Notes: generated from the sequence alone by a model not told the origin. A stretch of 64,000 nt of DNA from Agreia sp. (GCA_040398585.1 JBBATW010000003.1:14670-78669); one strand, 5' to 3'; shown: positions 24,921 through 62,371, counted from the first letter of the stretch. Numbers and translations are program-made.

Positions 24921-25874
24921 ATGACTGTCAGGACCAGCGAGCACGCCCGGCCTAATCACTTCCTTGTTCACTTGAGTGACACACACTTCGTGGGTGAGGG
25001 TGCGCTGCTCTACGACGCGGTCGATGCCGAAGCCCACCTGACCCAATTGCTCGCAGAGCTCGAGGCGTCTGAGTCCCGACCCGAGGCGATCATCTTCACG
25101 GGCGACCTCGCCGACAAGGGCGATCCTCGGGCCTACGAGAAGCTTCGCGCTCTGGTGGAGCCCGTGGCCGGGCGCCTCGGCGCCCAGCTGATCTGGGTCA
25201 TGGGCAACCACGACAACCGGGCCGTCTTTCGCGCCAGCCTGTTGAACCAGCTGCCGTCAATGAATCCCGTCGACCGGGTCTATGACGTCAATGGCCTGCG
25301 CATCATCACCCTGGACTCCACAGTTCCCGGGATGCACCACGGCGAAGTCAGTCCTCAGCAGCTCGACTGGCTCGCCGAGGAGCTTGCCAGCCCAGCCCCC
25401 CACGGCACCATCCTGGCCATGCACCACCCGCCGATCCCCAGCATGCTCGATCTGGCGGTTCTCGTAGAGCTTCGCAACCAATCAGCCCTCGCCGAGGTGC
25501 TCGAGGGTAGCGACGTGCGCTCCATCATCGCCGGCCACCTTCATTACTCCAGCACCGCGACCTTCGCCGGCATACCCGTCTCTGTCGCCTCCGCCACCTG
25601 CTACACCCAAGACTTGAATGTGCCCGTCGGCGGCACCCGCGGCCGGGACGGCGCGCAGGGCTTCAACGTCGTGCATGTCTACGAGAACACCGTGCTGCAT
25701 ACGGTGGTGCCCATCGGTTCCTACGCGGCGACGAACTATGTGTCGGCCGATGAGACGGCCAAGAGGCTTCAGGAGGCCGGCGTTAGGATCGCGCCGGCTC
25801 CCGACCTCGCCGTTCAAGCAGTTGAAGACTTCACGGTGCCGGCACTGGGCGCTTTGCAGAAGACGGTCGCCTAG
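24921..25874 (+). CDS. cpdA: Class III cyclic-nucleotide phosphodiesterase / metallophosphoesterase (Rv0805-like)
   Basis: [33 protein letters not shown] are the calcineurin-like metallophosphoesterase motifs in order. Start at [14 protein letters not shown], by analogy with the Rv0805 N-terminus as I recall it. Confidence 0.8.
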
Positions 25875-27502
25875 GCTGGGGTCTCCCAGGGAGCCCTGAT
25901 CGGATAGTACATTTCGAGAAAAGCGCCCATGATCTCCGAGCGCTCCTCGGCCGGCACCTCAGGGAAGCTGCCGTCGTTCAGACAGAAGAAGTCGTACTGG
26001 CGTCTCTTGAGTAGGCCGGGAAGTTTACCCAGCCCGCTTCTGGATGTCGTGTCGACGTAGAGCACGCGAGCCGACTCTTGGGTCACAGCCTGGCCGGTCA
26101 GGAGGGCGTAGTAGTGGTAGAGCGAGTTCGTGACAGAGATATCAGTGCTGGCGCGAAAGCGGCTTGCGGCCGTGCGGGCGAAGTCTTCAGGGAACTCCGA
26201 CTCGAGTTGCCGGATCACACTGGTTCGAAGAGGCGCAGGGGTGTGCTCGAGGTGCCTGGTGATGATGTGGCCGAACCGGCGCCAGAGCAGATCACGGTTC
26301 ACCCTCGCCGAATTCTCGAAGCCGCTGCGTGCGGCATCGCTCTCGCCGAGGCCGATCCGGGTCTTGGCCTGGATAAACTTCGTGATCCCGCCCGGGGAGA
26401 AAAACATTCCCGGCTCCACCGGTCGGCCGAAGAACATATCATCGTTCGAGTAGAGGAAGTGCTCGCTCAGGCCGGGGATGTTCTGCAGCTGGCTCTCGAT
26501 CGCCTGCGAGTTATGGGTCGGCAGCACAGAGGGGTCGGCGAAGAACGCCTCACTCCGAACGAGCTGCACCCGAGGATGCTCCACGAGCCATTCCGGGCGC
26601 GGCGAGTCGGTGACCACATAGACATTGCGAATCCAGGGCGCGAAGGCATACACGGCCCGGAGCGCATAGCGCAGCTCATCAACCTGGCGAAAACGCGCCT
26701 CGGCGGCATCGCCCTCCCCGACGACGACACCCTGCATCCGTTCGGCGCGGGCACGCTGGTACTCGGGGTCATTGCCGTCAACCCAGGAGAAGACCATGTC
26801 GATGTCGAAGCGCACATCGGTGGCGTGCGGGTCGAACATGCCCTCGAGCGTGTTCCATGTGCGGCCGTAGAGCTCTACGGTGGCCCGGATGGCCTCGGAG
26901 AGCGGCAAGACCTCACGGGTGAGTGAGTTCTCCACGGGACAGATATAGTTGCCGCCCTCGATGGTCCAGAACTGAAGCTCGATGCCGATTGAGGAACCGT
27001 AGGAGAGACCACCGATCGGCTCGACGCGGGGCCTGAACAGCCGGAATATCCTGGCCTTCCGGCGGGAAGACAGCACACCATCGCCCACGAGCACAGGGGC
27101 ACGACGCCTGCCGTCGATGGTGCGTGAGTAGAACGGCTCGTCCTTGAATGCCTCGGCGAGGGCACGCTCCACCGGGCGACGCTGGGGAAGATCGACCACG
27201 ATGACCGGCCGCTCGTCATTGCCACGAACGAGCAGGAAGTCGATACCGGCCAAGATCAGGGCGTCTCGGACGAACAACAGGTCGGAGACGAGCGCCTGGT
27301 GAGGCGTGAGCGTAGTATTCACAAGCATCGCCACGCCCTTGCGCACGACAACATCCGTGCGGGCGTGACGCAGGGGCCAGTCCCTGCCGGTCCCAGTCTC
27401 GCCCGCCGCCCGATTGAACTCCTGGTCCGGAGACTCTCCCGGGCCCTCGTCCAGAGCGAGGTTGTGGGTTGCGGCGCTGCCGGACGAGAGGTTGAGAGTC
27501 AA
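25871..27502 (-). CDS. Stealth (CR1-CR4) family sugar-phosphate transferase (CpsY-like)
   Basis: CR1 [17 protein letters not shown]2 [25 protein letters not shown]3 [32 protein letters not shown]4-like HTPAPL. Confidence 0.85.
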
Positions 27503-41742: not shown

Positions 41743-44553
41743 CTAGGCGCGCGGCTTTTCCTTCATCTCGATGGTCTCAATCTCGTCGCCGAGCTGGATG
41801 TCGTTGAACTTGCCCAGGCCAATACCGGCCTCGAAGTCCGTACGGACCTCGGTGACGTCGTCCTTGAACCGACGCAGGCTCTCGATCGCCAGGTTGTCGC
41901 CGACAACGATGCCGTCGCGGATAACCCGCGCCTTGGCGTTCCTGGTGATGGTACCCGAGCGAACGATGACACCCGCGATGTTGCCGAACTTGGAGGAACG
42001 GAAGATCTCGCGGATCTCTGCCACACCCGACTGCACCTCTTCGAACTCGGGCTTGAGCATTCCCTTGAGGGAGTTCTCAATGTCCTCGAGTGCCGAGTAG
42101 ATGACCGAGTAGAACCTGACATCGACGCCTTCGCGGGCAGCACGCTCGCGGGCCTTCGTGTCGGGGCGAACGTTGAACCCGATGATGATGGCGTTGTCGA
42201 CGGTAGCGAGGTTGACGTCGCTCTCGGTGACAGCACCGACACCGCGGTGGATGATGCGCAGCTGAACGGAGTCGTCGACCTCGATCTTGAGCAGCGATTC
42301 CTCGAGTGCTTCAACAGCACCCGAAACGTCACCCTTGATGATGAGGTTGAGCGACTCGACCTTGCCCTCTTCGAGCGCACGGGTGAAGTCCTCGAGGCTG
42401 ATGCGCTTGCGGCTCTTGGCCAGCAGGGCGTTACGCTCGACGGCTTCACGCTTCTCAGCGATCTGGCGGGCGGTGCGGTCGTCCTCGGTGACGAGGAACG
42501 TGTCACCGGCGCGAGGAACGCTCGACAGGCCCTGTACCTGAACGGGCCGGGCAGGCAGCGCCACGGTGAGGACGTTACCGTCTTCGTCGTGCATAGCGCG
42601 AACCTTGCCGTAGGCGGTACCAGCGACGATGGGGTCTCCGACGCGAAGCGTTCCCGACTGGATGAGCACGGTGGCAACCGCACCGCGACCCTTGTCGAGC
42701 TTCGCCTCGATGGCGACACCGCGGGCGGCCTTGTTCGGGTTGGCGCGCATGTCGAGACCTGCATCCGCGGTGAGCAGCACAGCGTCAAGAAGTTCCTTGA
42801 TACCGATGTTGTTCAGCGCCGACACGTCGACGAACATCACGTCTCCGCCGTACTCCTCGGCGACGAGGCCGAATTCGGTGAGCTGCTGACGGACCTTGGC
42901 CGGGTTTGCGCCGACCTTGTCGATCTTGTTCACCGCGACGACGATCGGCACGCCGGCGGCCTGGGCGTGGTTCAACGCCTCAACCGTCTGCGGCATGATG
43001 CCGTCATCAGCCGCAACCACGAGGATCGCGATGTCGGTGACCTGGGCACCACGGGCTCGCATGGCGGTGAACGCCTCGTGACCCGGGGTGTCGATGAAGG
43101 TGATGGCGCGTTCGATGCCCTCGTGCTCGGCAACTACCTGGTAGGCGCCGATGTGCTGCGTGATCCCACCGGCCTCGCCGGCGACGACGTTGGCACTGCG
43201 GATCGCATCCAGCAGACGGGTCTTACCGTGGTCGACGTGACCCATGACGGTGACGACCGGCGGGCGAACCTCGAGGTCTTCGTCGGTCTCGTCTTCAAGC
43301 TCCTGGTCGATGTCGATGTCGAAGCCCGAGAGAAGCTCGCGGTCCTCGTCCTCGGGGCTGACCATCATGATCTTATAGCCGAGTTCTTCACCCAGAATGT
43401 CGAAGGTCGCCTCGTCGAGGCTCTCCGTCGCCGTTGCCATCTCACCGAGGTGGAACAGCACCGTGACCAAGTTGCCGGGGCTGGCGTCGATCTTGTCGGC
43501 GAAGTCCGTGATGGAGGCTCCGCGACGCAGGCGAACGACGGTCGAGCCATCGCCGCGGGGAACGCTTACGCCACCAAGAGAAGGGGCTTCCCGCAGCTCG
43601 AACTCGGCGCGCTTCGTGCGCTTCGACTTGCGCGCCTTGGCACGACCGCCGCCACGACCGAAAGCACCAGCGGTTCCGCCGCCGGGGCCGCGACCTCGTC
43701 CACCGGCACCGCCGGGGCGGGGTGCGCCGAACGTGGTTGCACCGGGGGCGCCAGGAGCCCCGCCGGGACGGGCTGCTCCACCGGCACCGGCCGGGCGAGC
43801 GCCGCCGGGTCCACCGGGACGGAAACCGCCACCGGCACCCGCGGGACGCTGGCCGAAACCACCCGGACGGGCACCCTGGCCTACTCCACCGGGGCGCGGG
43901 GCGCCGGGGCGGGGCATGCCGGGACGAGGTGCTGCCGGACGCGGGATGGCGCCGGTGGCGCCACCGCCGGAGCCGGCACGAGGCGCAGCGGCAGGGGCCG
44001 GCGTGGTTCCCATTCCCTGTGAGCTGGCGAACGGGTTATTGCCGGGGCGAGGCGCGCCGGGGCGCTGCATCCCCTGGGTGCTGGCGAACGGGTTATTTCC
44101 CGGGCGCGGGGCGCCGGGCCGAGTTGTTGCGGCGGGCTCGGCCGCGGCCGGAGCCGCCGCGGAAGCCGGGGCTGCGGGTGTTGACGCAGGAGCGGGCGGC
44201 CGAGCCGCAACGGGAGCCGCTGCCACAGGCGCTGGTGCAACCGGGGAGGCAACAGCTTCGGGAGCCGCGGGCCGGGCCGGGCCGGGCGTCGCACCGGTCG
44301 ACGGGCGCGCTGCGGCCGGTGTCGCAACAGCGACAGCGGGTGCCGCAGGCGAGGCCACGGCTGCAGCAGGCACAACGACCTTGCCAGCGCCATCGGCGAT
44401 GAGGGCCTCCTTGAGTCGACGGGCGACCGGGGGTTCGATGCTTGACGAGGGACCCTTGACGAACTGGCCCATTTCTTTCAGCTTTGCGAGAGCTATTTTG
44501 CTATCGACGCCAAGTTCGGCGGCGACTTCGTGCACGCGTGGTTTTGCAGCCAC
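41743..44553 (-). CDS. infB: Translation initiation factor IF-2
   Basis: 936 aa. N-terminal [16 protein letters not shown], a long Ala/Pro/Gly-rich linker, and a G domain ([28 protein letters not shown]). GTG start with GGAG upstream. Confidence 0.97.
44008..44121 (-). repeat. In-frame 57-bp tandem duplication inside infB
   Basis: Encodes [19 protein letters not shown] / [19 protein letters not shown] (residues 145-182). The two DNA copies are nearly identical. Confidence 0.8.
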
Positions 44554-53086: not shown

Positions 53087-54526
53087 CTAGTCTGCCCCAT
53101 CTCCGGCATTCCCGCCTGTCCGACCGCTGGGAAGAGGGTTGCGAATACCTGTGGCCGAGACAATTCCGCCCGCTATCAGCAGGATGGCAGCGGCGGCGAT
53201 GGCCCGGTGGAACCCGGCCACATCCAATTCAACACCGATGAGCAGGCTCACCGCGGCCACGGCAATCAGGCCGGCGACCCGGGACACCGCGTTGTTCACC
53301 GCCGACGCGATTCCCGCGCGACGAGAGTCGATGGAGCCCAGAACCGCGGCGGTCAGTGGGGCAACAGTGATCGACTGGCCCAGGCCGAACACCACCAATC
53401 CTGGGAACACCGCGCTCCAGTACGCACCAGAGTCATCGACCCTGAGCAGGAGCAGAAAGCCCAAACCGCCGAGCATCGGTCCCACAGTCATGAAGAGTCG
53501 CGGACCGAATCTGCCGGCTAGAGAGCCGAAGAATGAGGAGAGCAGGATGCCCAGCACAACGACGGGTACGAGGGCAAGGCCCGCGAGGGTGGCACTGTAA
53601 CCGGCCACCTGTTGAAGAAAGAGGGTCAGGATGAAGGTGCCGACGGCGAGAGCGCCATAAATCAGAACCGTGGCGGCATTGCCGACCCGGAAGTTTCGCA
53701 CAGCGAATAGCCCACTGGGCAGCATGGGGTGCAGCGTCCTGGCCTCATGCCGGAAGAATGCCGCGAGCGCCAGTACACCGACCGCCATCGAACCCCAGAT
53801 AACGGGATGCGCAAAGCCCAGTGCGCTCTGTTCGATCAGGGCGAAGACGCACAGACCGAGCCCCACCATCCCCAGAACCGCTCCGAGAAAATCGATGCGG
53901 GTTCCTGCGGCGACCGCCTCGAACCGCTCGAGGCGGCTGAGGAGCAGAAGGGTCAAGACAATGGGCACGACGTTCAGCCCGAAGACGAGCCGCCAGGAGC
54001 CCAGGTCGACCAGAATGCCACCGAGCAGGGGGCCGATGAGGAATGCGGTGCCGGTCCACGCGGTCCAGAGGCCGATAGCCCGGGCCTGGCGGGAACCGGA
54101 GAAGCCAGCCAGGATGAGGGCGAGTGACGAGGGAACGAGAAGGGCCCCGGCGACGCCCTGAAGTGCCCGGGCGCAGATCAGGATGCCAGCGCTGGGCGCC
54201 AGGGCGCAGGCGACCGAGGTGACTCCGAATCCGACGAGGCCCCAGAACAGGACCCGGCGTCGACCGTAGGCATCAGAGAGAGACCCAGCGAGCAGGATGA
54301 CGGAGCCCAGTGTCAGCAGATAGGCATTGATTACCCACTGCTGCGTTGACAGGGCACCCCCGAGTTCGCCTGAGATCGCCGGCAGCGCCACATTCACGAC
54401 GGTGCCGTCGAGAAAAGCGATGAACGAGGCGAGAACCGCCACGGTGAGAACGAGTCGATGGTGAGCACCGGGCTCACCGGCTCTGGGTAGATCTACGGCG
54501 CACACCTGCTCAGCTAAACACGCCAC
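53087..54526 (-). CDS. MFS transporter, DHA2 (EmrB/QacA, 14-TMS) family
   Basis: 479 aa, about 14 TM helices. LDGTVVNVALPAI and GSLSDAYGRRRV are motifs typical of DHA2 drug:H+ antiporters. Divergent from the NRPS gene, with a 75-nt spacer. Confidence 0.8.
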   Translation of the reverse strand: MACLAEQVCAVDLPRAGEPGAHHRLVLTVAVLASFIAFLDGTVVNVALPAISGELGGALSTQQWVINAYLLTLGSVILLAGSLSDAYGRRRVLFWGLVGFGVTSVACALAPSAGILICARALQGVAGALLVPSSLALILAGFSGSRQARAIGLWTAWTGTAFLIGPLLGGILVDLGSWRLVFGLNVVPIVLTLLLLSRLERFEAVAAGTRIDFLGAVLGMVGLGLCVFALIEQSALGFAHPVIWGSMAVGVLALAAFFRHEARTLHPMLPSGLFAVRNFRVGNAATVLIYGALAVGTFILTLFLQQVAGYSATLAGLALVPVVVLGILLSSFFGSLAGRFGPRLFMTVGPMLGGLGFLLLLRVDDSGAYWSAVFPGLVVFGLGQSITVAPLTAAVLGSIDSRRAGIASAVNNAVSRVAGLIAVAAVSLLIGVELDVAGFHRAIAAAAILLIAGGIVSATGIRNPLPSGRTGGNAGDGAD

Positions 54527-54601
54527 GGCGGGGTTTCTGCCAAAACCATTGGCCGGGCGTCGCTACAGTGATGAGTAGATATCGTCAGAACGGGACCTGA
54601 A

Positions 54602-57600
54602 ATGACCTTGACTTCGGGTGTTCCGACACTCCTTCTGGGTGGCGCGCGAGCCACACCGGCACGAACCCTTATTGACATTCTGCGGGCCAGCGCCCTTGAG
54701 AACGCCGAGTCCGCGGCACTGGCCGATGCCGGTGGGAGCCTGAGCTACCGCGAACTGATGCGACTGGTCAATCGCTCGGCCAGCGCCCTGAATCGTGACG
54801 GCGTGCGCCGCGGCGACCGGGTGGGTATCCGAATCCCGTCTGGCACCCGCACGCTCTACATTTCTATTCTTGCCGTGCTCTCTGTCGGCGCCAGCTACGT
54901 TCCGGTCGATGCCGACGATCCAGACGAACGTGCCCGGTTGGTCTTTTCAGAAGCGGGTGTCGTGGGAATCATCGGCGAAGACGGCACGCTGATTCCGTTC
55001 ATCTCCTCGCCGCTGTCGACACCCTCGGAGTCAGAGCCTGCCGATTCGAACGAGCTTCACGTCGACCAATCGGCAACCGGCAGCATCCCGCTCGTGCCGG
55101 GCCCCCTGCCCGAGGATGATGCCTGGGTGATCTTCACATCCGGCTCCACCGGTGTGCCCAAGGGCGTCGCCGTGACCCACCGCTCCGCCGCCGCGTTCGT
55201 CGATGCCGAGGCACGGCTCTTTCTGGCCGGCGACCCTCTCGGGCCCGGCGACCGGGTGCTGGCCGGGCTTTCCGTCGCCTTCGATGCATCCTGTGAGGAA
55301 ATGTGGCTCGCCTGGCGCTACGGGGCCTGCCTGGTCCCGGCCCCCCGCACTCTCGTTCGAAGCGGCGCCGACCTCGGCCCCTGGCTGATCGCCCACGGAA
55401 TCACCGTCGTCTCCACCGTGCCCACCCTTGCAAGCCTCTGGCCGGTCGAGTCGCTGGAGAATGTCAGGCTGCTGATCTTCGGCGGAGAGGCCTGCCCGCC
55501 CGAGCTCGTGGCGCGACTGGCCGTGGACTCCCGGGAGGTCTGGAACACCTATGGGCCGACCGAGGCGACGGTAGTGGCCTGCGCGGCTCTCCTGGACGGC
55601 AACACCCCCGTTCGAATCGGCCTGCCACTGGATGGCTGGGACCTCGCCGTCGTGGACGCAGACCTGAATCCGGTTGCCACCGGCGAGGCCGGCGAACTGA
55701 TCATCGGCGGCGTCGGACTTGCGCGCTACCTCGACGCCGACAAGAATACGGAGCAGTACGCCCCGATGCCCTCTCTCGGCTGGGACCGCGCCTACCGCAG
55801 CGGCGACCTGGTGCGATTCGACGGCGAAGGACTTGTCTTCTTGGGCCGCGCCGACGACCAGGTGAAACTCGGCGGACGCCGGATCGAGCTCGGTGAGATC
55901 GAAGCGGCCCTGGCGGGACTTCTCCACGTGGCGGGCGCAGCCGCCGATATCAAGATGACCGCATCAGGCAACAAGGTGCTCGTCGGCTATCTCGCCTTGG
56001 TCGAGGGCGAACTGGAACTGTTCGACCGGGCCCGCGCCCTGGCCCAACTTCGTGCGGAGCTTCCCGGCTCCCTGGTGCCGCTACTCACCGTCGTGGACTC
56101 CCTTCCCGTGCGCACCTCCGGCAAGGTCGATCGCGCCGCGCTGCCGTGGCCGCTGACCGCGAAGAACGGCGATCACGACACGGCCGGGCTGTTTGGCACC
56201 GCGGCCTGGCTTGCCGAACTCTGGACGGCCGTTCTCGGCGTGCCGGTGGCCGGGCCAGACGACGACTTCTTCGCTGCGGGCGGTGGCAGCCTCTCCGCCG
56301 CCCAGCTGACATCCCTTGTCCGCACACGGTTCCCCGAGGCCCGGGTTGCCGACGTGTACGATCATCCGCGCATCGGCGCCTTAGCAAGCGAGTTGGATTC
56401 CCGCGCGCCCACGGAGTCGGCCCCGCAGCGGGCCGTGCTGCCCACCCCTGTTCGAAGCCAGCTTCTGCAGACTGTCCTCGGGTTCCCTCTGCTCACGCTG
56501 GTCGGTGCACGCTGGGTGATCTACCTGCTGGCGGCAAACAACATTCTGAACCGGCTGGTCGGGCTCGACTGGCTGCCCACATTTTCGTGGTGGGGAATCG
56601 CCGCAGGATTCTTCGTGTTCGTCACCCCTCTGGGGCGCATGGGACTCTCCGTTCTTGCCGCGAGGCTGCTGCTGAAGGGACTCGCCCCGGGCGAATACCC
56701 CCGGGGCGGTTCGGTGCACCTGAGGCTCTGGCTTGCCGAGCAGGTGGCCAGTCTCGTCGGGGCCGCCTCGCTCGCCGGCGCACCCTGGATTACCAACTAT
56801 GCCCGCGCGCTGGGGGCCAAGATCGGTGAGGGTGCCGACCTGCACACGCTGCCGCCGGTCACGGGGATGCTGACCCTGGGCGCACACGCCTCCATCGAGC
56901 CCGAGGTAGACCTCTGCGGGTATTGGATCGATGGCGATATTCTGCGGGTCGGCACGGTCACCGTCGGCGCTGACGCGGTCATCGGCGCCCGAAGCATTCT
57001 GTTGCCCGGATCCCGGGTGGGCAAGGGCGCGGCAATCGCACCCGGCTCGGCAGTGCACGCTCGCGTTCCTTCCGGAGAGCTGTGGGCCGGCAGTCCCGCC
57101 GAGCGCCTGGGCAAGGCCAAGAGCGGCTGGCCCGCCGAGCGCCCGCCCCGCGCCCCGCGCTGGCTCGTCGCCTACGCTGCGGGCTCGATCGCACTCTCCG
57201 CCCTTCCCCTGCTGGCGGTTTCCCTGGGGCTGGGGATCTGTGTGATCTTCATGCGTAACTCCAACAGTCTTGGCGAGGCGGCGGCGGCGGCCTTGATCGC
57301 CCTTCCACTTGCCACTGTCAGCGCCGGGGTCGCCTTCGCGCTCCTCGTGATCATCAGCGTGCGACTCCTCGCCATTTCTCTCGCTCCCGGCTACTATCCC
57401 GTGCGCAGTCGCATCGGCTGGCAGGTGTGGGCTACAGAGCGACTGCTGGACGTGTCGCGCAGCCTGCTGTTTCCACTCTATGCCGGCCTGTTCACCCCCG
57501 TCTGGCTCAGGCTGCTCGGCGCGAAGGTCGGCTCCAACGTGGAGGCGTCCACCGTGCTGCTGCTGCCATCGATGACCACGATCGGCGACCACGCCTTTCT

Positions 57601-58564
57601 CGCGGACGACACGATGGTCGCCTCCTATGAGCTCGGTGGCGGCTGGCTGCACATCGACGAGGCGAAGATCGGCCGCCGGGCCTTTCTCGGCAACAGCGGC
57701 ATGACCGGACCAGGCCGAACGGTACCAAAGAATGGCCTCGTCGCCGTGCTGTCGGCCACGCCCAAAAAGGGAAAGTCCGGGTCGTCCTGGATCGGCAATC
57801 CCCCGGTCAGGCTGCGCCGCGCCGTTACCGAGTTCGATGAGGGTCGAACATTCAAGCCACGCACTGCGCTGAGGGTCGCGCGGGCTCTCTGGGAACTCGG
57901 CCGCATCGTTCCGGTGATCGTTACCGCGGCGATCGGCCTCGGTGTCGCAGTCGTCCTGGAACTCGGCGTCGTATCGATCGGTCCGGCCGCAACCTTCGTG
58001 CTGTCAGGGATCGTTCTCCTCGTCGCAGGTGCTGTGGCCGCCCTAGTCACGACGCTGATGAAGTGGTGCCTGATCGGTCGCATCGGCATGTCGGAGCATC
58101 CGCTCTGGTCGTCGTTCATCTGGCGAAACGAGATCGCCGACACGTTCGTCGAGATGGTAGCCGCGCCCTGGTTCGCGCGCGCCGCCTCCGGCACACCGGC
58201 CCTCGCCTGGTGGCTGCGTTCGCTCGGCGCGACAGTTGGCCGGGGAGTGTGGTGTGAGAGCTACTGGCTCCCCGAGGCCGACCTCGTGAAGCTGGGTAAC
58301 GGGGCGACCGTTAACCGCGGCTGCGTGGTGCAGACCCACCTGTTCCACGACCGGGTGATGTCTCTTGACTCGGTCGAGCTGGCCGCCGGCGCGACGCTCG
58401 GCCCGCACAGTGTGATTCTTCCCGCGGCCAAGGTTGGCCGGGACGCTACAGTGGGCCCGTCCTCACTCGTGCTTCGCGGTGAGGAAGTACCCGCCGGAAG
58501 TCGTTGGAGCGGCAATCCCATCGCCCCCTGGACGACAACCGCCCGAAACCGCAGGGGAAGCTGA
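54602..58564 (+). CDS. Pls/PosA-family single-module NRPS (homopoly(amino acid) synthetase-like): A domain, T domain, then three membrane-flanked hexapeptide-repeat domains
   Basis: A-domain cores: FTSGSTGVPKGV, FDAS, NTYGPTE, GELIIGG, YRSGDL, GRADDQVKLGGRRIELGEIE, SGKVDR. T-domain FFAAGGGSLSAAQL (Ser563). The C-terminal ~700 aa has three pairs of TM helices alternating with left-handed beta-helix repeat segments. No C or TE domain. Confidence 0.85.
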   Translation: MTLTSGVPTLLLGGARATPARTLIDILRASALENAESAALADAGGSLSYRELMRLVNRSASALNRDGVRRGDRVGIRIPSGTRTLYISILAVLSVGASYVPVDADDPDERARLVFSEAGVVGIIGEDGTLIPFISSPLSTPSESEPADSNELHVDQSATGSIPLVPGPLPEDDAWVIFTSGSTGVPKGVAVTHRSAAAFVDAEARLFLAGDPLGPGDRVLAGLSVAFDASCEEMWLAWRYGACLVPAPRTLVRSGADLGPWLIAHGITVVSTVPTLASLWPVESLENVRLLIFGGEACPPELVARLAVDSREVWNTYGPTEATVVACAALLDGNTPVRIGLPLDGWDLAVVDADLNPVATGEAGELIIGGVGLARYLDADKNTEQYAPMPSLGWDRAYRSGDLVRFDGEGLVFLGRADDQVKLGGRRIELGEIEAALAGLLHVAGAAADIKMTASGNKVLVGYLALVEGELELFDRARALAQLRAELPGSLVPLLTVVDSLPVRTSGKVDRAALPWPLTAKNGDHDTAGLFGTAAWLAELWTAVLGVPVAGPDDDFFAAGGGSLSAAQLTSLVRTRFPEARVADVYDHPRIGALASELDSRAPTESAPQRAVLPTPVRSQLLQTVLGFPLLTLVGARWVIYLLAANNILNRLVGLDWLPTFSWWGIAAGFFVFVTPLGRMGLSVLAARLLLKGLAPGEYPRGGSVHLRLWLAEQVASLVGAASLAGAPWITNYARALGAKIGEGADLHTLPPVTGMLTLGAHASIEPEVDLCGYWIDGDILRVGTVTVGADAVIGARSILLPGSRVGKGAAIAPGSAVHARVPSGELWAGSPAERLGKAKSGWPAERPPRAPRWLVAYAAGSIALSALPLLAVSLGLGICVIFMRNSNSLGEAAAAALIALPLATVSAGVAFALLVIISVRLLAISLAPGYYPVRSRIGWQVWATERLLDVSRSLLFPLYAGLFTPVWLRLLGAKVGSNVEASTVLLLPSMTTIGDHAFLADDTMVASYELGGGWLHIDEAKIGRRAFLGNSGMTGPGRTVPKNGLVAVLSATPKKGKSGSSWIGNPPVRLRRAVTEFDEGRTFKPRTALRVARALWELGRIVPVIVTAAIGLGVAVVLELGVVSIGPAATFVLSGIVLLVAGAVAALVTTLMKWCLIGRIGMSEHPLWSSFIWRNEIADTFVEMVAAPWFARAASGTPALAWWLRSLGATVGRGVWCESYWLPEADLVKLGNGATVNRGCVVQTHLFHDRVMSLDSVELAAGATLGPHSVILPAAKVGRDATVGPSSLVLRGEEVPAGSRWSGNPIAPWTTTARNRRGS

Positions 58565-59901
58565 TGCCGAACAAGCAGCCGGCACCCCTTGATGAGGGAG
58601 TAGTTGCGGGTGGCGACCGCTACGTTCCTTCGAGCGGGAACGCCGGCTACCAAGTCTCGCACTACGCCTTAGAACTCGACTACCGGGTGGCCAACAACCG
58701 CTTGACGGGGATCACGACGATCACGGCGACGGCGACGCACGACCTGGCCCGGTTCAGTCTCGACTTTGCAGGCCTCGTCACCAATCGGGTGTCGGTGAAC
58801 GGTGTGCCCGCGAGAAAGGTCGTCGAGACCCAGCGAAAACTCACCATCACGCCGGCGGTCGCGATACGTGCGGGAGCTGTTTTTACGGTGATGATCCGCT
58901 ATTCGGGTGCGCCGGCGCCGGTGAAGAGCCCGTGGGGCGTTCTCGGCTGGGAGGAACTGGAAGACGGCGTGATCGTCGCTTCACAGCCCTGCGGCGCAAT
59001 GACGTTCTACCCCTGCAACGACGCCCCGGGAGACAAAGCCACCTACTCGTTCTCGATCACAGCCGAGTCCACCCATCAGGTGTTGGCCAACGGAAAGCTG
59101 ATCTCCCGGATGCCACGGGCAAGCCGCACGACCTGGACCTATGCGACCGACGAGCCGGTTGCCAGCTATCTCGTGAGCATCCAGATCGGTCGCTACCGGG
59201 AGATACTCCTGTCCCGTGACCCGGTTCCGCAGTTCGCCCTGCTCCCACCCGACCTGACGTCAAATGCCCTCAGGGACTTCGCCGACCAGAGCCTGATGAT
59301 CAACCTTTTCGAGCGCAGCTTCGGCCCCTACCCGTTCGCCCAGTACACGGTCGTCGTGACCGACGACGACCTGGAGATCCCGCTGGAGGCCCACGGCTTC
59401 TCAACCTTCGGCCGCAATCACATCGACGGCCAGGGCGGCAGCGAACGACTGATCGCGCATGAACTGGCCCATTCGTGGTTCGGAAACAGCCTGACCATTG
59501 CCTCATGGAAAGACATCTGGCTGCACGAGGGTTTCGCCTGCTACGCGGAATGGCTCTGGTCGGAGGAGAGTGGCGGTCCAAGCACCAGGGCCTGCGTGAA
59601 GCAGTACTGGCGCCAGCTGAATGCCCTCGGCCAGGATCTCGTGCTCGGCGATCCCGGGCCTGAGCTTATGTTCGACGACCGGGTGTACAAACGGGGCGCA
59701 ATCTTCCTCGACGTTATCCGCCGCGAGCTCGGCGACGCGCAGTTCTTTGCCCTTCTTCGTTCGTGGGTGGCCGAGAATCGGTTCGGCAGCGTAACGACGG
59801 CCGGGTTCCAAGCCGCGGCCGAGGCTCACAGCACGACACCGCTGGCCGGGCTCTTCGACAACTGGCTGTTCTCGGCACGGCTGCCTAAACTGCCCGCGTA
59901 G
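58564..59901 (+). CDS. M1-family zinc metallopeptidase (aminopeptidase N-like)
   Basis: HELAHSWFGN followed 18 residues later by WLHEGFACYAEW (HExxH-18-E gluzincin signature). The ATG shares one base with the synthetase TGA (cTGATGc at 58562-58566). Confidence 0.85.
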   Translation: MPNKQPAPLDEGVVAGGDRYVPSSGNAGYQVSHYALELDYRVANNRLTGITTITATATHDLARFSLDFAGLVTNRVSVNGVPARKVVETQRKLTITPAVAIRAGAVFTVMIRYSGAPAPVKSPWGVLGWEELEDGVIVASQPCGAMTFYPCNDAPGDKATYSFSITAESTHQVLANGKLISRMPRASRTTWTYATDEPVASYLVSIQIGRYREILLSRDPVPQFALLPPDLTSNALRDFADQSLMINLFERSFGPYPFAQYTVVVTDDDLEIPLEAHGFSTFGRNHIDGQGGSERLIAHELAHSWFGNSLTIASWKDIWLHEGFACYAEWLWSEESGGPSTRACVKQYWRQLNALGQDLVLGDPGPELMFDDRVYKRGAIFLDVIRRELGDAQFFALLRSWVAENRFGSVTTAGFQAAAEAHSTTPLAGLFDNWLFSARLPKLPA

Positions 59902-60505
59902 TTGGTTCCAGCACTGTCAGGGTCACGTTGAGTGACGCTGTGCCCCCGCGAGCGGCCACGATCATCACCACGAACAGCGTCAGGTCTACGTTGGGCACAG
60001 GAAGTCGTTCGAAGAGCACGTTCGGCCCGAGATCCGTCGTATCGACGTGGGTCAGCTCAACCCGAAGCCCGCGGCCGGTTGCCTTCAGGTACGCCTCTTT
60101 GAGGGAGAAAATCGCCGTTCTTTCAGCCTGGCGCAGGGCAGCCGGGGCGTCGTCGATTGCGTCAAGCTCCGCGGAAGCGAAGACCACCTCGTCGACCTGG
60201 GCCCGGCTCATCCGCGTTACGGACTCGAGGTCGATGCCCAACTCGCCGCCACAGCCTGCAGCGACAGCGACAAGGCCGGCTGCCCGGCTCTTACTCACCA
60301 TGATCTCGCTGCCGTCCGGCATCCGTGGAACCACGACCCGCGGTTTGCCATGGTCTCGGCCACAGTGCTGGCACTGGGAATCCAGAACAACATCTGCGGC
60401 CGCGACACCCGCGAAGGCCGCTACGGCCCTGGGCAGCAGCGCTACGTCGAGGTCTTCCGCCACAAGCCAGACATCGACGCTGCCGCTAGCGCGCGGTCGG
60501 CTCAT
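59885..60505 (-). CDS. 4'-phosphopantetheinyl transferase (Sfp-type)
   Basis: HGKPRVV, and the W/FSxKEAxxKA motif as FSLKEAYLKATGRGL. 206 aa. Its 3' end overlaps the 3' end of the peptidase gene by 17 nt (convergent). Confidence 0.8.
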   Translation of the reverse strand: MSRPRASGSVDVWLVAEDLDVALLPRAVAAFAGVAAADVVLDSQCQHCGRDHGKPRVVVPRMPDGSEIMVSKSRAAGLVAVAAGCGGELGIDLESVTRMSRAQVDEVVFASAELDAIDDAPAALRQAERTAIFSLKEAYLKATGRGLRVELTHVDTTDLGPNVLFERLPVPNVDLTLFVVMIVAARGGTASLNVTLTVLEPTTRAV

Positions 60506-60950
60506 GGCTGACCGGAAAGTTCACTGAGTTTGCGATGAAGCACTTTCGTGCGGCCTCTGCGTGCAGCGAGTTCGCCAGCTCAGCCTGAGAGACGTCGGCC
60601 AGGGTGACGACGGGGCGAAGCGTCGCTCCGGTGAACCGGCCGGCACCGTCGGCGGTCGTAACCATGACGCCGTTGGCGGCATCCGTGTAGGCCATCACAG
60701 TCACGCCATGAGCCACTGCCACATGCAAGTACGACAGCATGTGGCACTCGCTCAGGGCGGCGAGCAACAGCTCCTCGGGGTTCCAACGGTCGGCATCGCC
60801 GTGAAAGGTTTTGTCGGCACTGCCAAGAAGCGCGGGTTTGCCGTCCGCTGTGACAACGTTCTGGCGGCCGTAGTCCCGATAGCTGCTCGTGCCTGTTCCG
60901 CGATTGCCAAGCCACTCTACGGTCACGAGGTAGGAATGCTCTGCTTTCAC
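60486..60950 (-). CDS. OsmC/Ohr family peroxiredoxin-like protein
   Basis: WNPEELLLAALSECHMLSYLHVA (first conserved Cys) and KCFIANS (second Cys). 154 aa. Overlaps the PPTase start by 20 nt. Confidence 0.85.
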   Translation of the reverse strand: MKAEHSYLVTVEWLGNRGTGTSSYRDYGRQNVVTADGKPALLGSADKTFHGDADRWNPEELLLAALSECHMLSYLHVAVAHGVTVMAYTDAANGVMVTTADGAGRFTGATLRPVVTLADVSQAELANSLHAEAARKCFIANSVNFPVSHEPTAR

Positions 60951-61000
60951 GGCGCCCAGCCTACGTGTCTTTCCCAGACCCCCGCGATAAACTTCAGTTC

Positions 61001-62371
61001 ATGACCGACACTCTCTCGTCCCGCCCCGTCGAAGCCACTTCCTTCACGATCGCCCAGGAGCGAAAGGTCGTCACCTCGATCCCCGGCCCTCGGTCCATTG
61101 CCCTGCACGAACGTCGCCTCGCCGTTGTACCCACCGGTGTGGCCACCACCCTTCCCGTCTACATCGAGAAAGCCAACGGAGCCATAGTCGTCGACGTCGA
61201 CGGCAACCACTTCATCGACCTGGGTGCCGGAATCGGCGTCACGACCATCGGGCACACGAACCCGGCCGTCGTCGCCGCCGCCACCCAGCAGCTCAACAAG
61301 GTCACCCATACGCTCTTCACCGTAACTCCCTACGAGGAGTACGTGCGTGTCGCCGAACTGCTCGCTGAGCACACCCCCGGTGACTTCGCAAAGAAGACCG
61401 TGCTCGTGAACTCCGGCGCGGAGGCGGTAGAGAATGCCGTCAAGATCGCCCGCAAGTTCACCCGCCGGGTCGGCGTGGGCGTGCTGGACCACGGCTACCA
61501 CGGTCGCACCAACCTGACCATGGCCATGAACTTCAAGGCGGCGCCCTACTCAACCGGCTTCGGCCCGTTCGCAGGCGACGTCTACCACGCGCCCAATTCC
61601 AACCCGTATCACGATGGCCTAACAGGCGCCCAAGCGGCCAAGAACACCATCGCCTGGTTCGAGAAGACCGTCGGAGCCTACGACCTCGCCTGCATCGTGG
61701 TCGAGCCTATCCAAGGCGAAGGAGGCTTCATCGTCCCCGCCGAGGGGTACCTGCAGGCGCTTCAGGCGTGGTGCACCGAGAATGGCATCGTCTATATCTC
61801 CGACGAGATTCAGAGCGGAATGGCCCGAACCGGCGCCTACTTCGCCAGTTCGCACTTCGGCCTCGTTCCCGACATGGTCACCAGCGCCAAGGGCATCGCA
61901 GGCGGAATGCCGCTGGCCGGGGTCACTGGACGCGCCGAGATCATGGACTCCGCATTCCCCGGCGGACTGGGCGGCACCTTCGGCGGCAACCCCGTTGCCG
62001 CCGCCGCCGCGATCGCGGTGTTCGAGACCATCGAGAGCGACAACCTGCTCGCGGAGGCCACCCGCATCGGAAACACCCTGACGGCCGGGCTCGCGAAGCT
62101 GGCCGCCAAGTACGACATCATCGGCGAGGTGCGCGGCATCGGCGCCATGATTGCGATCGAGTTCGTGATGCCCGGCACGGGTTCCACCACCAAGGAGCCC
62201 AACGCCGCCGCAGTGAACGCGATTACCGCCTTCGCCGCTGCGAACGGTGTGCTCGTGCTGAATGCCGGAACGTACGGCAATGTGATCCGCTTCCTGCCGA
62301 GCCTGGTGATTTCCGACACCCTGCTCGAGGATGCCCTCGGTGTCCTCGATGCCGCCATGGCGACCCTGTAG
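61001..62371 (+). CDS. gabT: 4-aminobutyrate--2-oxoglutarate transaminase
   Basis: Class III aminotransferase. GIGVTTIGHTNP, EPIQGEGGFIVP, ISDEIQSGMARTG, and TSAKGIAGGMPL (PLP lysine). Start at MTDTLSS. Confidence 0.9.
   Translation: MTDTLSSRPVEATSFTIAQERKVVTSIPGPRSIALHERRLAVVPTGVATTLPVYIEKANGAIVVDVDGNHFIDLGAGIGVTTIGHTNPAVVAAATQQLNKVTHTLFTVTPYEEYVRVAELLAEHTPGDFAKKTVLVNSGAEAVENAVKIARKFTRRVGVGVLDHGYHGRTNLTMAMNFKAAPYSTGFGPFAGDVYHAPNSNPYHDGLTGAQAAKNTIAWFEKTVGAYDLACIVVEPIQGEGGFIVPAEGYLQALQAWCTENGIVYISDEIQSGMARTGAYFASSHFGLVPDMVTSAKGIAGGMPLAGVTGRAEIMDSAFPGGLGGTFGGNPVAAAAAIAVFETIESDNLLAEATRIGNTLTAGLAKLAAKYDIIGEVRGIGAMIAIEFVMPGTGSTTKEPNAAAVNAITAFAAANGVLVLNAGTYGNVIRFLPSLVISDTLLEDALGVLDAAMATL

Follow-up and report, generated by a model that had tools for sequence, protein, structure and literature searches.

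The 64,000-nucleotide stretch of Agreia sp. DNA analysed here (GCA_040398585.1 JBBATW010000003.1:14670-78669, hereafter the window, with positions counted from its first nucleotide) carries a pls-like gene whose product is predicted, at a probability of roughly 0.8, to use L-lysine as its monomer and to make epsilon-poly-L-lysine (abbreviated epsilon-PL). Membership of this protein, here called Pls, in the Pls/PosA family of single-module membrane nonribosomal peptide synthetases (NRPSs) is close to certain. Its layout, A-T-(TM2-C)x3, comprises an adenylation (A) domain, a carrier (T) domain and three units in which a pair of transmembrane (TM) helices is followed by a soluble C domain. The operon is real, intact and conserved. 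It is also ordinary, in the sense that the family, the architecture, the lysine code and the peptidase partner have already been described, and standard annotation recognises such genes. The features and their coordinates are collected in Table 1.

Table 1. Domains of the predicted synthetase and neighbouring genes, with window coordinates.
Feature	Position	Strand	Size or basis
pls-like gene (Pls/PosA-family single-module membrane NRPS, predicted epsilon-PL synthetase)	54602..58564	+	1320 aa
Adenylation domain, aa 18-519	54653..56158	+	match to PDB 7WEW, 591.7 bits
Carrier (T/PCP) domain, aa 536-596	56207..56389	+	Pfam PP-binding, 41.6 bits
Helix pair TM1-TM2, aa 617-653 and 663-690	56450..56671	+	AlphaFold2 helices, block pLDDT 75-92; Kyte-Doolittle maxima 1.83, 1.57
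C1 soluble hexapeptide-repeat (left-handed beta-helix-like) domain, aa 691-852	56672..57157	+	Pfam Hexapep; weak PDB matches; hhalign to units 2 and 3
Helix pair TM3-TM4, aa 853-884 and 890-924	57158..57373	+	AlphaFold2 helices; Kyte-Doolittle maximum 2.37 each
C2 soluble hexapeptide-repeat domain, aa 925-1087	57374..57862	+	weak PDB matches; hhalign
Helix pair TM5-TM6, aa 1088-1126 and 1128-1158	57863..58075	+	AlphaFold2 helices; Kyte-Doolittle maxima 2.40, 2.55
C3 soluble hexapeptide-repeat domain, aa 1159-1320	58076..58561	+	weak PDB matches; hhalign
PldII-like M1 zinc metallopeptidase, 445 aa	58564..59901	+	Pfam Peptidase_M1_N and Peptidase_M1; HELAH-x18-E
Sfp/HetI-type 4'-phosphopantetheinyl transferase, 206 aa	59885..60505	-	Pfam ACPS, 46 bits; NF042922 HetI
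DHA2-family MFS efflux transporter	53087..54526	-	TIGR00711 efflux_EmrB, 230.2 bits; Pfam MFS_1
GabT-type class-III aminotransferase	60965-62371		GabT equivalog 544.1 vs cutoff 506.65

The open reading frame (ORF) of pls runs from an ATG to a TGA without a break in frame and has all of its core motifs intact. Aligned along its positions 2-695 (of 695), the NCBIfam model TIGR02353 ("Pls/PosA family NRPS") covers aa 622-1307 and scores 729.7 bits (cutoff 423.1), and the amino-acid adenylation model TIGR01733 scores 333.6 bits (cutoff 317.4). High-GC DNA yields many spurious long ORFs, several of which overlap pls in other frames, so that a chance ORF or a decayed pseudogene has to be considered. 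The odds of either are negligible: in addition to the full-length TIGR02353 match and the unbroken frame, homologues across genera are 64-92% identical with an almost invariant specificity code (119 of 122 sequences), and the G+C content at third codon positions (GC3), 0.80, is usual for real genes in the window. We regard the profile match, the homologues and the conserved code as refuting this explanation.

Within Pls, Pfam detects AMP-binding (aa 29-375, 213 bits), PP-binding and a single Hexapep match (aa 786-818); at E<=0.01, neither a Condensation nor a Thioesterase family was matched. The carrier motif FFAAGGGSLSAAQL occupies aa 556-569 and includes the phosphopantetheine attachment residue Ser563, encoded by AGC at nt 56288-56290. 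Ser563 lies within GGGSLS, and GGGSL(S/T) is found in the commonest variants of the family.

The C-terminal part of Pls has six hydrophobic segments (aa 621-643, 663-685, 854-883, 897-920, 1102-1124 and 1132-1153), with Kyte-Doolittle maxima of 1.57-2.55 over 19 residues, and three hexapeptide-repeat openings (aa 738-748, 973-983 and 1209-1219). In an AlphaFold2 model of aa 601-1320 (predicted TM-score, pTM, 0.76; mean predicted local distance difference test, pLDDT, 70.6), six long helices coincide with the hydropathy peaks. The six TM helices were judged from the model together with hydropathy. When the second helix of each pair and the soluble domain after it were taken as a unit and compared by hhalign, the three units were mutually homologous (probability 96.4-98.8%, E 1e-9 to 1e-16), which indicates that they are true tandem repeats. 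In sequence searches of the PDB, each of the three soluble segments gave weak matches, the partners being hexapeptide acyltransferases and gamma-carbonic anhydrases, and no solved structure of the module in the C-terminal 720 aa was found. Likewise, when the C-terminal model was searched with Foldseek, the PDB yielded nothing at E<=0.001, just marginal hexapeptide acetyltransferases. Pls and PosA are described as having this combination of A and T domains with alternating TM and soluble segments (PMC10522769, PMC8117764), and homologues of the C-terminal module were found in 742 representatives of 50%-identity clusters (E<=1e-30).

A first-pass annotation, made from the sequence of the window, had already described a 1320-aa ORF with a complete A domain and a carrier domain at Ser563, the lack of condensation and thioesterase domains, six hydrophobic segments and three hexapeptide openings. 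Positions and Pfam results agree with this description, and every segment was located as quoted. Its assignment to the Pls/PosA family with the A-T-(TM2-C)x3 layout is borne out by the full TIGR02353 profile, hhalign and AlphaFold2, and the expected six TM helices are supported by the model and hydropathy. It had also held that monomer, linkage and chain length could not be read off the sequence, which remains a fair statement for linkage and chain length. For the monomer we disagree, given that the code described below strongly predicts L-lysine.

The specificity code of the A domain (D228, A229, E232, S271, I292, G294, T316, V324, V325 and K508) reads DAESIGTVVK; the register was validated on GrsA-PheA, which gave the canonical DAWTIAAICK. 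To place the code, the A-domain sequence of Streptomyces albulus Pls (7WEW) was reconstructed from a database match and aligned with the query, and this crystal sequence also reads DAESIGTVVK. The same code occurs in the epsilon-PL synthetases that have been confirmed from S. albulus, S. celluloflavus, S. roseoverticillatus and Kitasatospora aureofaciens, and in the confirmed enzymes of Corynebacterium variabile, Epichloe festucae and Claviceps purpurea (PMC8117764, Data Set S3). Homologues with this code are reported from Corynebacterium, Brevibacterium, Arthrobacter, Microbacterium and others (PMC8117764). In our alignment, which comprises the query, the S. albospinus enzyme and 120 homologues from the Microbacteriaceae, it is kept in 119 of the 122 sequences. 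A 34-position "8 Angstrom" signature was tried as well and dropped, as it gave five mismatches to the published S. albulus signature and an alignment gap.

Overall similarity of the A domain points the same way. Against 7WEW the query reaches 591.7 bits, compared with 195.3 bits for the A domain of PosA (8G95), and its identity to 7WEW is 64.6% by MAFFT and 60.8% by BLASTP. It is 63.6% identical to the N-terminal sequence of C. variabile Pls (409 aa), a comparison made on the N-terminal part from another strain; between the two confirmed enzymes, those of S. albulus and C. variabile, identity is 62.3%. The code match to confirmed enzymes and the PldII-like peptidase encoded downstream lead us to expect L-lysine as substrate and epsilon-PL as product.

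For a full-length comparison, a Streptomyces locus was obtained with a degenerate DNA pattern derived from DLCIEIERRARQLRD, a peptide of S. albulus Pls; the pattern matched two relatives and not S. albulus. One of these loci (L001) was incomplete; the other (L002), from S. albospinus, contains the full pls and the first ~320 codons of the peptidase gene. S. albospinus Pls (1318 aa) is the orthologue of S. albulus Pls, with an A domain 89% identical to 7WEW. The query is colinear with it from end to end, with 52% identity over 1299 aa and 40 gap positions (A 64%, T 50%, C1 49%, C2 55%, C3 65%), so that residues 600-1320, aligning with a Streptomyces Pls, pass the check that the first-pass annotation had set for them. 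S. albulus Pls itself (BAG68864; 7WEW) resembles the query in length (1319 and 1320 aa), layout, code and the coupled M1 peptidase downstream. The query differs in a low-complexity A-domain insertion of ~25 aa, in the additional Sfp-type phosphopantetheinyl transferase and divergent efflux pump of its cluster, and in its host, a non-mycelial member of the Microbacteriaceae. The insertion, relative to 7WEW, is Ser/Pro-rich, falls at aa ~133-165 (~54998-55096) and lies upstream of the TSGSTG motif. PosA has an insertion of its own relative to Pls, of 16 residues (Tyr132-Glu147).

The gene downstream of pls encodes an M1 zinc peptidase with an HExxH-x18-E motif. The pls TGA (58562-58564) overlaps the peptidase ATG (TGATG), and AGGGGA lies 8-13 nt upstream of the peptidase start. 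Over 299 aa, the peptidase is 39% identical (E 3e-67) to the product of the gene directly downstream of S. albospinus pls, whose GTG start overlaps the pls TGA (GTGA), a coupling like that in the window. In S. albulus, pldII is translationally coupled to pls, and PldII is an endo-type epsilon-PL hydrolase, extramembrane and required for self-protection (PMC9223678). A pls-peptidase operon is also present in C. variabile (PMC8117764). The window peptidase thus shares with Streptomyces PldII its family, its position directly downstream of pls and its coupling. Both groups have a degenerate GAMEN exopeptidase motif, which reads IPLEA in the window protein and APVEN in Streptomyces.

The two groups differ at the N-terminus. 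The S. albospinus peptidase, which served for this comparison in place of S. albulus PldII, begins with MTRCSRRALIRGAALLPLAATVA, including a Tat-like leader (SRRALIRGAALLPLAATVA); an extramembrane location is reported for the Streptomyces enzyme. In contrast, no export signal or TM segment was found by hydropathy in the window peptidase (19-residue Kyte-Doolittle maximum of -0.11 in its first 45 aa), nor is either seen in three Microbacteriaceae orthologues, whose N-termini are hydrophilic (Agreia L003 13942-15276, Plantibacter L004 14005-15339 and a metagenome relative, L005 13963-15303; the S. albospinus gene is at L002 1-985 on the minus strand). In all four Microbacteriaceae proteins, a short hydrophilic N-terminus leads directly into a conserved D-x-Y-x-P-S-S-G-N motif. 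Lacking an export signal, the window peptidase is probably cytoplasmic. The signal-less N-terminus would weaken a strict identity with PldII, and not a putative role in polymer degradation.

Several points weigh against epsilon-PL as the product. Identity of Stachelhaus codes is a prediction of substrate and not proof of it, and is silent on linkage. The TM and linker regions of the query are just 26-33% identical to those of Streptomyces Pls, and linkers reportedly influence the chain length made by Pls (work of Hamano and colleagues). The peptidase, without a Streptomyces-type export signal, may have a different role. Our literature search found no report of a polymer, or of an enzyme experiment, from any member of the Microbacteriaceae. 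Finally, neither native C. variabile nor a C. glutamicum host gave detectable epsilon-PL, and only expression in Streptomyces with the pls promoter worked (PMC8117764). As the C. variabile enzyme yields polymer only under Streptomyces expression, the query pls may likewise be silent or tightly regulated.

Once expressed heterologously, C. variabile Pls (WP_014008652 / WP_041630296) makes epsilon-PL of 26-35 residues (PMC8117764). It is 51% identical to S. albulus Pls and 31-33% identical to the other three synthetases (PMC8117764). Like the query it is a non-Streptomyces actinobacterial enzyme with the same code and an operonic peptidase, although its host belongs to the Corynebacteriaceae. 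The view of the first-pass annotation that no characterised product is known from this kind of genome therefore holds narrowly, for the Microbacteriaceae. It does not hold more widely, given that the C. variabile orthologue makes epsilon-PL and that a Microbacterium homologue is listed in the same study (PMC8117764). Within the Microbacteriaceae, antiSMASH 'NAPAA' or epsilon-PL clusters, as predictions only, are conserved in Subtercola (PMC10303725) and listed in Herbiconiux (PMC10011130), Agromyces (PMC13515495), and Microbacterium and Agrococcus (bioRxiv 10.1101/2025.01.21.633868).

Several monomers are known in the Pls/PosA family, and the query could in principle polymerise another cationic one (ornithine, 2,4-diaminobutyrate (Dab), 2,3-diaminopropionate (Dap), beta-lysine or arginine), supplied by the nearby class-III aminotransferase. 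Such an aminotransferase stands near pls both in the window and in Plantibacter, and poly-Dab clusters do contain a diaminobutyrate transaminase (PMC8117764). We consider this improbable. The synthetases of beta-poly-Dap, gamma-poly-L-Dab, gamma-poly-D-Dab and epsilon-poly-beta-lysine, from Streptomyces and Streptoalloteichus, share family and architecture with the query, but the gamma-poly-D-Dab synthetase (PDDAB) has the code DFECLSCVSK (PMC8117764, Data Set S3) and the poly-beta-lysine synthetase DGESISVVNK, whereas the query has the code of lysine-polymerising enzymes. The loci of the Dap, Dab and beta-lysine synthetases also carry monomer-supply genes, in contrast to the query neighbourhood, where neither a lysine 2,3-aminomutase nor any gene of a Dap or Dab pathway was found.

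PosA, the delta-poly-L-ornithine synthetase of Acinetobacter baumannii (PDB 8G95-8G98; PMC10522769), has the same family and domain layout as the query, but its A domain is far more distant from the query than is 7WEW. At code position 2 PosA has Met218, called chain-length determining in PMC10522769, where the query has Ala, as does Pls. PosA is further encoded in a single-gene operon without a peptidase, and its product is an ornithine polymer of 7-12 residues.

As for the aminotransferase, its score on the GabT equivalog model is 544.1, above the cutoff of 506.65, whereas on the diaminobutyrate transaminase model it scores just 224 against 671. These scores, together with the lysine code, led us to reject it as a supplier of Dab. 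A GabT-type aminotransferase occurs near pls in two contexts, two genes downstream in the window and directly upstream and divergent in Plantibacter (L004 8507-9850), and the two proteins are 57% identical. Its presence may be a coincidence, or may reflect a tie to lysine or 5-aminovalerate catabolism.

If the query is an epsilon-PL synthetase, as we favour, the following scheme can be proposed. The neighbouring 4'-phosphopantetheinyl transferase (PPTase) would convert Ser563 of the carrier to the holo form, and the A domain, going by its code, would activate L-lysine as lysyl-AMP and load it as a thioester. The six helices and three hexapeptide domains probably pack as one pseudo-threefold unit at the cytoplasmic face of the membrane. 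In repeated rounds, the C-terminal module would link an epsilon-amino group, either from free lysine or from the free growing chain, to the lysyl thioester held on the enzyme, and the isopeptide-linked polycation would be released without a thioesterase. This mechanism is established for S. albulus Pls and is transferred here by homology. The coupled M1 peptidase may then hydrolyse the polymer for self-protection or control of chain length, as shown for S. albulus PldII, though here probably in the cytoplasm.

The PPTase carries the motif FSLKEAYLKATG and is presumed to activate the Pls carrier domain. Its gene is convergent with that of the peptidase, and their 3' ends overlap by 17 nt. On the other side, the PPTase gene overlaps an upstream OsmC-family gene by 20 nt on the same strand (59885-60950), so that the two are probably on one transcript; Agreia and the metagenome relative have this pair too. 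A gene for a DHA2-family transporter of the major facilitator superfamily (MFS) is oriented divergently from pls, at a distance of 75 bp. Speculatively, this pump could export the polymer or confer tolerance to it, and its association with pls is putative. A promoter and terminator scan of 54300-61100 gave results no better than shuffled sequence.

Pls homologues are widespread, with at least 7935 at E<=1e-20 among 8000 candidates scored. A search with the 7WEW A-domain sequence returned incomplete proteins only and served just to gauge the spread of the A domain. The closest homologues of the query are all from the Microbacteriaceae (64-92% identity), where they occur in at least 15 genera. 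The nearest is a JGI metagenome protein (92%), followed by Agreia (72-73%), and those at 64-71% come from Luethyella, Glaciibacter, Leifsonia, Compostimonas, Salinibacterium, Subtercola, Herbiconiux, Cryobacterium, Plantibacter and others. NCBI already applies the name 'Pls/PosA family non-ribosomal peptide synthetase' to many of these homologues. An identical protein already exists in the databases, from a 132-kb NCBI/Logan contig.

The pls-peptidase-PPTase trio is present in all three other Microbacteriaceae loci that were compared (Agreia, Plantibacter and the metagenome relative). Agreia sp. COWG and the contig of the 92%-identical metagenome protein share the gene order MFS, pls, peptidase, PPTase, OsmC, GabT and asparaginase II, adjoining dxr. 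In Plantibacter the trio lies at another locus without the MFS gene, which leaves the trio as the conserved core. There it stands a few genes upstream of argS-lysA-hom-thrB (L004 17129-24005), and so by the final step of lysine biosynthesis. Recent horizontal transfer of pls into the window was considered and dropped, as neither GC3 nor the synteny with Agreia gives any sign of it.

The wide conservation of the module in the Microbacteriaceae hints at a role beyond antibiosis. One could suppose that pls, the signal-less peptidase and the PPTase form an old, vertically inherited, near-core trait of this family, and that the lysine polymer is not a secreted antibiotic. It would be short, cell-associated or turned over within the cell, being made and trimmed on the cytoplasmic side for the sake of envelope charge, nitrogen storage, or tolerance of cold, osmotic or other stress, and it might have a different chain length. 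Consistent with this are the setting of the module among core genes (dxr, ispG, proS, infB) in a synteny shared with Agreia and the metagenome relative, its presence across so many genera, the lack of a signal peptide in four of four peptidase orthologues, and the failure of native C. variabile to yield detectable free polymer (PMC8117764). However, the Plantibacter module is at a different locus, the divergent efflux pump is consistent with export, and the missing signal peptide was judged by hydropathy alone. We regard this physiological role as unlikely on present evidence, although less so than a monomer other than lysine.

The differences from Streptomyces in the peptidase, PPTase and MFS genes leave the family assignment of Pls unchanged, and give room for a somewhat different polymer biology around an epsilon-PL synthetase. 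In particular, a Microbacteriaceae Pls with divergent linkers might give another chain length. Epsilon-PL is a commercial food preservative, which lends some applied interest to enzymes from outside Streptomyces.

The genes that flank this operon are of a general kind. Upstream of pls are rbfA, infB, nusA, proS, ispG, an M50 site-2 protease (rseP-like), dxr and an FKBP lipoprotein, and downstream are OsmC, GabT and asparaginase II. The remainder of the 64-kb window holds housekeeping genes and nothing related to pls. IF-2, the 936-aa product of infB (41743-44553, minus strand), has a long N-terminal region rich in Ala, Pro and Gly. Long but spurious ORFs cover infB on the mirror strand, an indication that the high-GC DNA here readily yields false ORFs. 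A Stealth-family protein, with regions CR1-CR4 as in capsule hexose-1-phosphoryl transferases, is encoded amid the housekeeping genes at 25871-27502 on the minus strand.

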